Shown here one piece after another: positions 203-62,296 of a stretch of DNA of 64,000 bases. The notes below the pieces were generated by a model. That model did not search any database and was not told the DNA's origin. It worked only from the letters and a program-made list of their open reading frames with translations. The stretch comes from Eledone cirrhosa (lineage: Eukaryota), in the NCBI GenBank assembly GCA_964016885.1, contig OZ024751.1, positions 14,074,001 to 14,138,000 of the forward strand. The letters run 5' to 3'. Each line of letters opens with the position of its first letter. The first letter of the stretch is position 1. The position numbers and the translations under genes are program-made.

Positions 203-413
203 TAACGAAGGAGTTGTGGTAAGGAACCAGATGGACCATAACGCACCAGAGTACTCAATACTTAGGGTAGTAGAGTGGGTTATAGGAACAAGTATAACCC
301 CGACGGCAGAGCTCAAGCCGTTTCGACGGGCTATTTCTGGACTGAAATAGCCGTCGAAACGGCTTGAGCTCTGCCGTCGGAGGAGGGGGGGGGGGGGTCA
401 TACTTTTTCATAT
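203..413 (-). mobile_element. Fold-back PLE-like short element, family A copy 1 (3' half of a hammerhead)
   Basis: Palindrome 300-380 centred near 340; GAAAC-ggc..gcc-GTC; GAGTACTC at 249-256; homologues at 57977-58136 and 61109-61292. Confidence 0.75.
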
Positions 414-709
414 ATATATATATACACACACATACACATATATAAGGTTTAGTACGACCACAACTCTTTCGTTCTTTCGTTCACACGATGCTTGTAAACA
501 TGTCTTCGCAAAACAAAACAAAACAAAACAAAACAGAAGAGAAATACAAGGGCGCCGTTCTCACGCATTAAACTTAGAGAGAACTGTTTATTGGGCTTCA
601 CAGGTCATCGAAAGAGCACAAGGCGAGTGTGAAGTAAGTATTGTATATAACACAATTGTCATTGAAACATTCATTTGTGTCAGGTGAAGGTGGATGCTGT
701 TAATTCTAA

Positions 710-1570
710 TAGACACACGCCGCAATATGAGTCACATGCACACACACACACACACACACACACACACACACACACACACACACACACACACACACACACA
801 CACACACACACACACACACACACACACGGTATGAGTCACATACACACACACGCCGCGATATGTCACACAGACACACACGCGCGCACACACACACACACAC
901 ACACACGGTATGAGTCACATACACACACACGCCGCGATATGTCACACAGACACACACGCGCGCGCACACACACACACACACACGGTATGAGTCACATACA
1001 CACACACGCCGCGATATGTCACACAGACACACACGCGCGCACACACACACACACACGGTATGAGTCACATACACACACACGCCGCGATATGTCACACAGA
1101 CACACACGCGCACACACACACGATATGAGTCACATACACACTGACGCCGCGATAAAAGTCACATACACACACACACACGCCGCGATATGTCACACACACA
1201 CACGCCGCGATATGTCACACACACACACGCCGCGATATGTCATATACACACACGCCGCGATATGAGTCACATACACACACGCCGGCCGCGATATGTCACA
1301 CACACAGACGATATAAGTCACACACACACACACAGACGATATAAGTCACACACACACACACAGACGATATAAGTCACACACACACACACACACACACGCC
1401 GCGATATGTCACACACACATGCCGCGATATGTCATACACACACACGCCGCGATGTCACACACACACACACACACACACGATATGAGTCGCACACGCACAC
1501 CCACGATATGAGTCACACACACACACACACACGATATGAGTCACACACACACACACACACACACGCGTCA
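710..1570. repeat. Compound (CA)n minisatellite with cacgccgcgatatgtcacac / cggtatgagtcacatac units
   Basis: Units recur about every 75-80 bp and shorten toward the 3' end. Confidence 0.9.
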
Positions 1571-1729
1571 CGTACATTTCTGAATCCATAGACTCTCGCT
1601 GGACGTCATTGCGATGACTCGTAGGGATTTCAGTTGCTAATGTTTTACTGTGTTGGCCGTCACATACAGTTATAGCCGACACGGATTGGGATCGAATTCT
1701 GTCGATCGATTGGTTATTGATTAGGCGAA

Positions 1730-1842
1730 ACCCACTGATGAAACCACATGCGCCGATTGTGCATTATTGCATAATAAATGCAGACAGAGGGTGCAGTGCA
1801 CACTATTGCTGCATTAAGTGTGCCCGAAACACGAGTACGGGT
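1730..1842 (+). ncRNA. Type I hammerhead-like motif with enlarged domain II, inside a ~1570-1984 element
   Basis: accca-CTGATGA(1735-1741)-84 nt-GAAA(1826-1829)-cacgag-TA-cgggt; GAGTAC at 1927, then a hairpin and a TA tract. Confidence 0.6.
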
Positions 1843-2079
1843 AAAATTTGAAGGTACCCATTTACGTTTGTTGCATGGAAGCGAACAACTGTGTCTACTC
1901 TGGGAGTTTACTTAACATTACCTATTGAGTACGCTGAGATGCAACCGGTACTAGCAGTGAAATCCATGCTAGCTCGGTTAACTTATATATATATATAAGT
2001 TATTCCGGGTTGAATCGGAGGTAACCACAGTAAGTAAGGTACTCAATACATAGTAGAGTATAAATGTTTTAATAATAAT

Positions 2080-2132
2080 GAGCTTCCTGATGATTTCTCA
2101 CGAGTGAAACAGTTCTAGTCCTGTAGAAGCTC
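2080..2132 (+). ncRNA. Type I hammerhead ribozyme motif
   Basis: gagcttc-CTGATGA-tttctcacgagt-GAAA-cag(ttctagtc)ctg-TA-gaagctc; perfect 7-bp stem I; GUA cleavage triplet. Confidence 0.8.
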
Positions 2133-2390
2133 TTCTATATATATATATATATATATATATATATATATATATATAAATAAATGTATATATAAGTATGGAC
2201 GAGGTGTCAAACTCTGTGTGTGTATGTGTGCGCGTGTGTTCCGTAGAGATTGTTTTGGTAAAAACAGGAGCAAAGAGGAGAAAGCTCTCAACACTTGTAG
2301 TTTGTAGTTACGATGGAGATTCTGTATAATAATAACATTAATAAAGATGCTGATGCTATTTAAATCGTTTATTCGTTATAATTAATTCAA

Positions 2391-2571
2391 CGGTGGATCG
2401 GTAGAGGGTCTGACGCCATGCTTTATAGCAAATAGTTACGGCCCTTTGTGGTCTGAGTTCAAATCCCGCTGAGGTTAACTTTGCCTTTCATCCTTACGGG
2501 GTCGATAAAATAAAGTACCAGTAATGCACTGGGATAATTGCTGGCCTTGTGCCAATAGTAGAAACAATTAT
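2391..2571 (+). mobile_element. SINE with Nin-like central domain
   Basis: B-box gagttcaaatccc, then aactttgcctttcatccttacggggtcgataaaataaagtaccag; several copies in the window. Confidence 0.8.
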
Positions 2572-2658
2572 AATTATTTCAACAGTTCTCCCATGAATAA
2601 ACGATTTATGTAACATCAGCAGCTTTATTAATGTTGCTATTATTATTATTATTATATA

Positions 2659-59614: not shown

Positions 59615-60060
59615 ACACTGAGTGGAGTGGGGAGTCACACCTGACATGTAGTTCTACTTGTCAGAGTCCTACGTCAGTGGAGTGGGAAGTCACACTTGAC
59701 ATGAAGTCCTACCTCAGTGGAGTGATGAGTCACACCTCAGTAGAGTGGAGAGTCGCATTTGACATAGAGCCCTGCCGCATTGGTGTGAGGAGTAACACTT
59801 GAAATGGTGTCCTACCTCAGTGGAGTGGAGAGTCACACACGACACGGTGTCCTACCTCAGTGGAGTGGAGAGTCACACACGACACGGTGTCCTACCTCAG
59901 TGGAGTGGAGAGTCACACCTGACACGGTGTCCTACCTCAGTGGAGTGGACAGTCACACTTGACACGGTGTCCTACCTCAGTGGTGTGAGGAGTAACACTT
60001 GAAACGGTGTCCTACCTCAGTGGAGTGGACAGTCGCACTTGACAGTGCTACCTCAATGGA
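59615..60060. repeat. 40-bp minisatellite gtcctacctcagtggagtggagagtcacacacgacacggt
   Basis: Exact 40-bp period at 59812-60012. Confidence 0.92.
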
Positions 60061-60297
60061 ATGGCGGCTAATAAATACAGTAGCGCCCCCTTTGATCATG
60101 TCTATTAGGACAGAAGGGTGACTCATCGATTCATTAACTTCTACCTTTTCACATGCGTTACTGACATCTTTGACACCTATTCAGGTATTTAACTAATTAC
60201 AGGTGTAGTATGTCGCGAAAAACGGCTAGGTGTGATAAGAAACTGATATCCTCCATAACTACCTTATTATATTTCTGTTGTTTTCAAGTAATGGCCA

Positions 60298-61000
60298 GTC
60301 AACAACAACATCAATCAACATTAATAGCAACTACAATAACAACAACAACGATAACAACATTAATAACATCAACAATAACAACATCAACAACAACGATAAC
60401 AACATCACCAACAACATCAACACCATCAACAACAACAACAACAACAACATCAACATCACCAACAACATCAACAATGACAACAACAACGATAACATCACCA
60501 TCAACAACAACTACAACAACAACGACAACATCACCAACAATAACAATAACAACAACAACGATAACAACATTAATAACAATAACAACAACAACAACGATAA
60601 CAACATCACCACCAACAACAACAACGATAACAACATCACCAACAACGATAACAACAACGATAACAACATCAACATCACCAACAACAATAACAACAACAAC
60701 GATAACAACATCAACGACAACGACAACGACGACGACGACGACAACAACAACGACGACGACGATAACAACATCAACAAAAACAACATTAATAGCATTACTA
60801 ACAACAATAACAACACCAACAACATCACTAACAACAACAACATTATCACCACCAACAAGAACAACAACAACAACAATATCACCAACAACATCAACAGCAA
60901 CATTCCTAACAACATCATCAACAATAACATTACAAATAACAACAACAACAACATTATCATCATCACCAACAACATCACTACCATCATCATCACCAACAAG
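60298..61000. repeat. Degenerate (AAC)n trinucleotide array
   Basis: Gives poly-T/N/V/L in different frames. Confidence 0.9.
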
Positions 61001-61108
61001 AATAGACACAGAAAATAAAAGGTAGTCCTACTAAAGTAAAAAAAAAAAAACGTAAATAAAGAGAGTAAACAAGACAAACCGTTAGGTAATATATATATAT
61101 ATATATAT

Positions 61109-61292
61109 ATAGGAACAAGTAAAACCCCGACGGCTGAGCTCAAGCCGTTTCGACGGCTAAATTAGCCGTCGAAACGGCTTGAGCTCAGCCGTCGGGGTCT
61201 TACTTGTTCCTATTACCCACTCTACTACCCTAAGTATTGAGTACTTTGGTGCGTTATGGTCCACCTGGTTCCTTACCACATTTCCTTCGTTA
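61109..61292 (+). mobile_element. Fold-back family A copy 3
   Basis: Palindrome centred near 61160; GAGTAC tail ending at a TA tract. Confidence 0.8.
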
Positions 61293-61604
61293 TATATATA
61301 TATATATATATATATATATATATATATATATATATATATATATAATATATATATAATATATATATATATATATATAAATGAAAAAAATGAAATTTCATTT
61401 CTCACTCTTAGTACGGCTGATACTTAAATATAAGTATGTATACGTACATACATATATGTATACATACGTACAGTAGTATGTATATACAATCATACATGCA
61501 CACACACACATATATATATATATATATATGTACGTATTGGTTTACCGAACATTTATTATAATGCTCGCTTTGTTTGCCCTTTTGTTCAACACTGACAAAG
61601 GAAA

Positions 61605-61643
61605 GATGAACTAGTTTCTAGCTTATTAGCTGTCATCAGCACC
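61605..61643 (-). ncRNA. Type I minimal hammerhead motif
   Basis: Minus ggtg-CTGATGA-c-agct(aata)agct-a-GAAA-ctag-TT-catc. Confidence 0.72.
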
Positions 61644-62055
61644 GTATATCTTCCTGTCAGTCGATTGAACGTTTGAAAGTATATACTTTCCTTATGTATA
61701 TTAACGGCTGAGCAGCCTAATTTGCATATCGAGTGAGTTAGTCGGCCGTGCGTACCGAGTACGATAAATGAAAAAATGAAGTTTCATTTCTCGCTCTTAG
61801 TACGGCTGATACTTATATTACATACATGCACACACACACACATATATATATATATATATATATATATATATATATATATATATATATGTGTGTGTGTGTG
61901 TGTGTGTGTACGGCTAATAATTCGGGCTGTTTGTTTACAAACAAACCGAGCATTATAATAAATGTTCGTTAAACCCATGCGTACATATATATATATATGT
62001 ATGTATGTATATACATACTAGTGTACGTCTGTATACATACTAATATATATATATA

Positions 62056-62296
62056 ATAGTAGAAAACTGGAGGGTTATATCCGTAGTAGTAGAGCACTCA
62101 GTCCATGGGACGAGTTTGGTAGAAGTAGTAACACAACAGTTAGTTGACCATTACCGAGAACAATTGTTTCACCTTATTCGGATCGTCAGCTCCGTTTAAA
62201 TGGGATTGTCAATCCCATTTAAACCGAGCTGGCGATCCGAATAAGGTGAAACAATTGTTCTCGGTAATGGTAAACTAACTGTTGTGGAACTACGTC
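62056..62296 (-). mobile_element. Fold-back element with opposed hammerheads
   Basis: Palindrome 62132-62286 centred at 62209; minus gag-CTGACGA-tccgaataaggt-GAAA-caattg-TT-ctc; plus arm has CTGGCGA; GCACTC at 62094. Confidence 0.82.

Follow-up and report, generated by a model that had tools for sequence, protein, structure and literature searches.

The 64,000-nucleotide (nt) stretch of the Eledone cirrhosa genome analysed here (assembly GCA_964016885.1, contig OZ024751.1, positions 14,074,001 to 14,138,000 of the forward strand; hereafter the window, with positions counted from its first letter) carries a series of type I hammerhead ribozyme motifs. The initial annotation, made from the letters alone, had read them as a single class of 150-450-bp retroelements without open reading frames (ORFs), associated with (TA)n tracts and mobilised by Penelope-like elements (PLEs) such as those at 18026 and 62950. 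This description was wrong for most of the families and right for a few: they split into the ends of PLEs and closed ORF-less units.

A plain motif scan found CUGANGA starts at 1735+, 2087+, 3171+/3082-, 8708+, 33159+/32961-, 33713-, 58732+, 61639- and 62189-, in agreement with the cores proposed earlier. A strict descriptor, requiring stems I and II and a 6-nt insert, gave 6 matches in the window, where 100 block shuffles averaged 0.02; a wider one gave 10 against 0.24 (50 shuffles), with a fully palindromic insert in seven matches and none in shuffles. The hammerhead motifs of the window are beyond chance and real. The descriptor is blind to 2-nt inserts and to the U3-A8 core variant, so counts for those types are too low. 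In most motifs the foot of stem II is unpaired or a U-U and the insert is self-complementary. The proposed common design, a 1-bp stem III with a palindromic insert, does not hold for 2087 (14-nt insert, predicted 4-bp stem III) or 58732 (non-palindromic insert). The 1735 hammerhead is decayed (stem I mismatch and broken palindrome), the core is changed in 58393-, 6658+ and 62229+ (the mirror of 62189), and 8708 lacks a clear stem I; copies of the families elsewhere in the genome mostly have an intact core. Two clean hammerheads, 10668+ and 31584+, had been overlooked. An Rfam scan (E up to 10) returned no hammerhead family among the matches listed (150 of 451), nearly all of which are microRNA matches driven by microsatellites.

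Hammerhead motifs are not special to the window. Sixty 10-kb pieces taken at even intervals across the 3.0-Gb genome (0.02%) contained 55 motifs, against 0-5 in 10 shuffles, and 43 had a fully palindromic insert, against 0-1. Extrapolation gives about 2.6x10^5 motifs genome-wide with this descriptor, a count of motifs and no measure of activity. The claimed (TA)n association was borne out: a (TA)5+ tract lies within 200 nt downstream of 80% of the 55 sampled motifs, compared with 20% of random positions. With (TA)n at 14.2% against 4.6%, the window exceeds the sample about threefold, which fits its roughly twofold motif density.

Families were traced by walking upstream from hammerhead copies at other genomic loci (L numbers below), with the 40 best of 379-2823 candidates scored per family search. 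Eight of the 13 families of the initial annotation continue upstream into the reverse transcriptase (RT)/GIY-YIG ORF of autonomous PLEs, mostly of the Hydra clade. They are PLE 3' ends with random 5' truncation, as a ninth family probably is, and a defined 5' end without an upstream ORF was seen in none of the eight (62189, 33159, 33713, 3171, A, 58732, 6658 and 8708). The Hydra features of the window, followed by the end of the probable ninth family, are as follows (strand where assigned; EN, endonuclease; UTR, untranslated region):

203..447: family A, two 5'-truncated Hydra PLE 3' ends head-to-head, GAAA half of the hammerhead only
2890..3268: head-to-head Hydra PLE 3' ends, hammerheads 3082- and 3171+
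9282..10857, + strand: 5'-truncated Hydra PLE, EN C-terminus at 9282-9461, 1.2-kb 3' UTR, hammerhead 10668
32757..33225: head-to-head Hydra PLE 3' ends, hammerheads 32961- and 33159+
33460..34150, - strand: Hydra PLE 3' end, 5' end approximate, hammerhead 33713 with a long stem II
57993..58136, + strand: second family A fragment
61098..61292: third family A fragment
62047..62298: head-to-head Hydra PLE 3' ends, hammerheads 62189- and decayed 62229+, 60-nt tail on one arm
62834..62952, - strand: 5'-truncated hammerhead end, second copy at 63808-63894

Six families (62189, 33159, 33713, 3171, A and 10668) run into Hydra ORFs. In the passages on this clade that we compared, Craig et al. 2021 (PMC8557442) give RWK, DKT, CxCX5C, CxxC..E and CxH as its diagnostics, and describe hammerheads and (TA)n targets. 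All five motifs occur in L362; L121 has DKT, the CxCX5C linker, CxxC and CxH, and the linker is also present in L164, L107 and L372. In each of these five loci the RT is followed by a C-terminal GIY-YIG-type EN in one ORF region. The elements carry the hammerhead in a terminal repeat and are inserted in (TA)n; their assignment to the Hydra clade is by the diagnostic motifs.

In the 62189 family, with a fixed 3' end in (TA)n, the distance from the end of a Hydra EN to the upstream probe, which was taken from the longest copy, is 73-171 nt in 13 of 30 loci, and the upstream ORF encodes an RT thumb and the CxCX5C linker beside the endonuclease. Copies of the 33159/32961 family in L227 and L322 comprise a Hydra EN, a 1.2-kb UTR and the same hammerhead. 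For 33713, 7 of 25 loci have the end of the EN 1,295-1,331 nt upstream, and L362 is a hammerhead-ORF-hammerhead tandem with a period of 4,639. L372, of the 3171/3082 family, has RT-EN, a 1.35-kb 3' UTR and the same hammerhead; owing to the length of the UTR, 0 of 30 short loci extended as far as the ORF. In L107, a Hydra EN precedes the full motif of family A by 1.1 kb; the motif has the U3-A8 core variant and a 5-bp stem III, and matches to the family occur in 20 of the 60 sampled pieces. The family of the half-motifs at 62899/63865 probably also continues into a PLE ORF: its full motif is found in L120, and a diverged relative follows a Hydra EN in L448. Its end at 62834..62952 meets the RT of a different family at 62952 in head-to-head orientation. 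Additionally, window positions 1-121 match the 3' tail of the 10668 family at 90%.

Three further families (58732, 6658 and 8708) continue upstream into PLE ORFs with a Neptune-type linker. Their features, together with that of the 18026 PLE, are:

6560..6760, + strand: fragment of a Neptune-type PLE pseudo-long terminal repeat (pLTR), ends approximate, minimal hammerhead 6658 with changed core
8560..8828, + strand: Neptune-type PLE 3' end, minimal hammerhead 8708 with poor stem I
18024..18750, + strand: GIY-YIG end (PF01541) of a young Neptune-type PLE
58670..58927, + strand: 3' end of the PLE family with RT at 62952, hammerhead 58732
62952..63785, + strand: PLE RT fragment of the 58732 family

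As in Neptune-type PLEs, a CX2-5CxxC linker accompanies a C-terminal GIY-YIG EN in 58732, 6658, 8708 and 18026, and these four are assigned to that clade by motifs only. In L127, RT, CX4CxxC linker, GIY-YIG EN and UTR precede the same hammerhead and tail as in 58732. The 6658 fragment matches L123 at 84%, and the family of L123 continues into a PLE ORF in 11 of 25 loci; we had taken this family for a closed unit, as it looked in L123 and L016, until ORF-bearing copies were found. For 8708, the EN ends 467 nt upstream in L450, one of six loci examined. The 18026 PLE family, sampled in loci L061-L090, is very young, with 16,580 candidates and many 784-amino-acid open frames, and has further 3' ends at 62616-62783 and 19569-19746. 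We saw no canonical hammerhead in its 3' UTR (1.2 kb, microsatellite-rich). The suggested link to the two resident PLEs held in part: the RT at 62950 belongs with the 58732 family, but no specific tie was found between the 18026 PLE and the hammerhead families of the window.

In contrast with these, the upstream sequence of 61639, 31584, 58393 and, weakly, 1735 is the family's own 3' end. These are ORF-less units of up to four families, read as non-LTR retrozymes; a head-to-tail arrangement of hammerhead-bearing units was seen for 61639 and 31584 and is presumed for 58393 and 1735. We list them together with the 2087 family:

1575..1985, + strand: 5'-truncated copy of an apparently closed ~880-nt ORF-less unit, decayed hammerhead 1735
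1997..2137: 2087 family, inverted tail arm and sense hammerhead, predicted cut site after 2125
31290..31906, + strand: single unit of the young ORF-less tandem retrozyme of 628 nt, hammerhead 31584
58148..58540, - strand: 5'-truncated copy of a closed ORF-less ~2-kb unit, hammerhead 58393 with changed core
61374..62030, - strand: closed ORF-less unit of ~425 nt (389 here), hammerhead 61639, terminal redundancy and inverted arm

For the 61639 family, the sequence immediately upstream is its own 3' end in 27 of 30 loci, judged by pattern; the repeat period is 422-462 nt, and the loci examined show no contiguous ORF. L320 and L205 consist of two head-to-tail units plus the tail. The 58393 family meets its own tail 1.7 kb upstream in 14 of 25 loci, and its longest stop-free frame has 110 codons of low complexity. 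The 1735 family (2037 candidates; predicted cut site after 1837; longest stop-free frame of the 880-nt unit, 63 codons) closes at ~880 nt in 2 of 20 loci; no others extended far enough to show it. No PLE protein match was found inside the 425-nt unit (tblastn only), inside the 628-nt, 880-nt and 2-kb units, or in the 1.7 kb upstream of 58393. Each closed family has hundreds to thousands of dispersed candidates. The proposed absence of ORFs was right for 61639, 58393 and, weakly, 1735, and wrong for the eight families that run into RT/EN ORFs; the length of 150-450 bp is that of truncated copies, and two of the three closed units among the 13 families measure 0.9-2 kb.

In the 628-nt family, all 40 best-scored matches are 99-100% identical, many of them 628 nt apart, and the longest array holds 30 hammerheads over 18 kb at 99.8-100% identity. 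The displayed insertions, dispersed over many contigs, consist of a 5'-truncated part-unit plus whole units, 1 to 30 in number, and all displayed copies close on themselves. Nine of nine array ends pass into (TA)n at the same base, ~250 nt past the cut site predicted after 31653, and eight different 5' starts were seen. The longest Met-started frame has 36 codons and the longest stop-free frame 84. The 31584 hammerhead has a 7-bp stem III in the predicted fold, so that a partner copy would not be needed.

The 2087 family belongs to neither group so far: no ORF link appeared in the 5 loci examined of 40 scored, and walking upstream led no further than an internal microsatellite. Its copies in L316 and L299 have antisense Hydra pieces next to them. 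Among the 55 sampled motifs, 26 belong to PLE-ORF-linked families, 8 to closed units and 6 to the 2087 group, and 15 were unmatched. Tandem hammerhead families absent from the window were also encountered, namely one with a 467-nt period (L121, L361), distantly related to the 425-nt unit, and others in L116 and L364 (about 520-550-nt spacing) and L365 (459-nt spacing).

The ends of the insertions are informative. Their 3' ends are fixed and adjoin (TA)n, 5' ends vary across copies, and neither ever falls on the position where the ribozyme would cut. A head-to-head arrangement is frequent, with a tail of about 55-150 nt on one arm. In the 62189 family, for which copies were chosen by tail alone and BLAST extents are approximate, no more than 79 nt remain ahead of the cut site in 28 of 29 copies, the CUGANGA half is missing in 16 of 29, and 5' ends and inversion centres differ from copy to copy. 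Over all collected loci, a sample biased by the searches, 201 distinct head-to-head junctions were scored, 198 of them within one family; 25 fall in the 425-nt unit and 11 in the 2-kb unit. Two alternative 3' ends, with and without the tail, occur in autonomous families and in the 425-nt and 2-kb units. That these two ORF-less units share the PLE inversion and two-end footprint supports their mobilisation by PLEs.

Three of the 201 junctions, including that at 62952, join different families. L121 holds a further cross-family joint, scored as same-family since the reference contained 183 nt of the partner; a tail-to-tail control (22 keys) was not comparable. The joints at 62952, L121 and L361:6008 have no (TA)n at the joint, and one links the 425-nt unit to Hydra sequence. 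They hint at template switching within one insertion event, but are too few to prove co-mobilisation and serve as a lead only. Another observation concerns the tails: a GAGTRC motif, often in a near-palindrome, is present in 8 of 14 tail slices of unrelated families, counted with no chance control (A, 33159, 3171, 58393, 2087, 1735, 31584 and 58732), and by eye in 62189. It could be a promoter or an enzyme-recognition element.

The remaining features of the window include a 13-kb array at 43309-56335 (28-bp unit, ~470 copies, 93% matches) and RT fragments of the long interspersed nuclear element (LINE) type at 15067-16801, 20222-20670, 23684-26185, 26889-28481 and 29628-30806, most adjoining (TA)n tracts; one has a PHD-like finger inside and one C-terminal C2H2 fingers. 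Elsewhere, at G000:C3, 89.4-90.3 Mb, seven near-identical copies of one compound insertion are spaced 133-163 kb apart, which suggests a large tandem segmental duplication.

Overall, we conclude with a probability of about 0.8 that most of the hammerheads are 5'-truncated 3' ends of PLEs, mainly of the Hydra clade, and that at most four families are ORF-less retrozymes likely copied by PLEs. Several observations weigh against this conclusion. Predicted folds of the 61639 and 62229 monomers lack the hammerhead shape, and in the passages compared of the preprint by Li, Clavereau and Pollet (2026) one of nine retrozyme dimers was cleaved in vitro. Several ORF links were seen at one locus (3171 in L372; 8708 in L450) or at two (58732 in L127 and L318; A in L107 and L444), and closure of the 880-nt unit at just 2 of 20. 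No sequence match was found between the closed units and autonomous PLE 3' ends, and with scoring confined to the 40 best candidates of each search, a closed unit may have an autonomous partner that went unnoticed. Moreover, none of the 201 scored head-to-head junctions belongs to the 628-nt or 880-nt unit.

Four other explanations were weighed. The closed units might be minisatellites that arose from a PLE end and expanded as DNA by unequal crossover, a route discussed in the pertinent part of Li et al. (2026). Recombination could make a 30-unit array of 99.8-100% identity, and may have lengthened the longest array; as an origin of the families it is nonetheless unlikely, given their hundreds to thousands of dispersed candidates and the reverse-transcription footprints of a fixed 3' end in (TA)n, variable 5' starts and, in two families, inversions. 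We are just as sceptical that autonomous PLEs with ORF-bearing copies outside the sampled loci gave rise to the closed units, as long pLTRs or as deletion derivatives. The number of candidates scored leaves room for such copies, as the case of 6658 illustrates, but 61639 is preceded by its own end in 27 of 30 loci and by a contiguous ORF in none, and every displayed 31584 copy closes on itself. A single class of short, non-autonomous ribozyme elements with defined ends, embracing every family, is very improbable. Most copies are indeed short, ORF-free and flanked by (TA)n, their 3' ends are uniform and three of the originally described families are closed units; however, RT/EN ORFs lie upstream in 8 of the 13 families, the 5' ends and the centres of inversion differ between copies and often halve the ribozyme, and L362, L372, L322, L107, L127 and window positions 9282-10857 refute it as a general statement. 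Least credible is mobilisation of the closed units by LINEs (RTE, CR1 and others, abundant here), which likewise yield fixed 3' and variable 5' ends and have left RT fragments in the same (TA)n tracts of the window, since head-to-head arms with two 3' ends are described PLE features and occur in the 425-nt and 2-kb units, although the 628-nt unit offers no such evidence.

Under the conclusion that truncated PLE ends and a few PLE-copied retrozymes coexist, the GIY-YIG endonuclease would nick (TA)n and the RT would prime at a fixed point of the RNA, usually falling off after 100-300 nt and leaving a lone or halved hammerhead as passive cargo. Lone, halved and opposite-strand hammerheads cannot form a tandem dimer on one transcript and are probably passive. 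In tandem or pLTR-ORF-pLTR transcripts, two hammerheads would pair through the palindromic insert, while that of 31584 would fold alone; either way a unit-length RNA would be cut out, which may circularise and template more-than-unit cDNA. Insertions run unbroken across the cut site and are longer than one unit, implying a circular or uncleaved multimeric template. Going further, we tentatively suggest, at somewhat less than even odds, that a PLE enzyme, most likely Hydra, primes circular retrozyme RNA at a fixed point away from the ribozyme cut, rolls through one to many units and inserts the product into (TA)n, sometimes switching to another PLE family, that the genome holds about a quarter of a million motifs and that the 628-nt element is currently active.

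Much of this resembles known systems, as far as the passages compared allow. The Hydra elements here share with those of PMC8557442 the C-terminal GIY-YIG EN, motif set, hammerheads, (TA)n targets, 5' truncation, inverted arm and one-sided tail; there, insertions of EN-bearing PLEs are described as inverted truncated copies with a one-sided tail of 30-40 nt, and the supplement lists one octopus Hydra family with (TA)n preference. In E. cirrhosa, by contrast, at least eight distinct Hydra families coexist, 3' UTRs measure 0.2-1.5 kb, one full unit measures 4.6 kb (vs <3 kb) and tails are longer. Cervera and de la Pena 2014 (PMC4209133) reported that a genome holds many families, as well as solo motifs that derive from truncated PLEs, pairs on opposite strands at distances of 100-700 bp, the U3-A8 variant, dimers that cleave weakly and a circle model. 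The hammerheads described here agree in their many unrelated families, mostly solo motifs, opposite-strand pairs, extra nucleotide before stem II, palindromic 15.2-16.2 region, U3-A8 variant and dimer model. They differ in inserts that are often 4-8 nt, in the 4-7-bp stems III of some families and in number, our extrapolated, descriptor-dependent count being far higher than their 2,000-9,000 per genome.

Non-LTR retrozymes were defined in Cervera and de la Pena 2020 (PMC7229834), where PLEs were named as candidate mobilisers, and Li et al. (2026) added retrozyme-PLE co-occurrence and pLTR homology. The closed units resemble them as ORF-less units of low GC with one type I hammerhead each, head-to-tail in the 31584 and 61639 families, ranging from monomers to multimers and coexisting with PLEs. 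However, the units other than the 425-nt one span 628 nt to 2 kb, compared with the usual 150-450 bp (up to 972 in Li et al. 2026), and strict (TA)n targeting, a 3' end fixed away from the cut site and PLE-type inversions occur here and not in the retrozyme passages compared. Circular RNA is known for coral, mussel and axolotl retrozymes. Our literature search, which did not cover subscription papers, found no paper on cephalopod hammerheads or retrozymes, and the terms 'ribozyme' and 'hammerhead' are absent from the main text, as available, of an octopus repeat annotation (PMC13282606).

Solo hammerheads left by truncated PLEs in (TA)n, which make up most of the finding, had been reported in 2014 and 2021. 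What is added here is the scale, the young 628-nt retrozyme and a PLE insertion footprint on ORF-less units. PLE mobilisation of animal retrozymes has so far been argued, in the parts of PMC7229834 and Li et al. (2026) that treat it, from co-occurrence and pLTR similarity; in E. cirrhosa, ORF-less units and autonomous PLEs of one genome share the same target, end structure and, in two families, inversions. The young and homogeneous 628-nt family offers a clean substrate for tests of cleavage, circular RNA and trans-mobilisation and, if the proposed mechanism is true, this element would be a direct test case for PLE mobilisation in trans.

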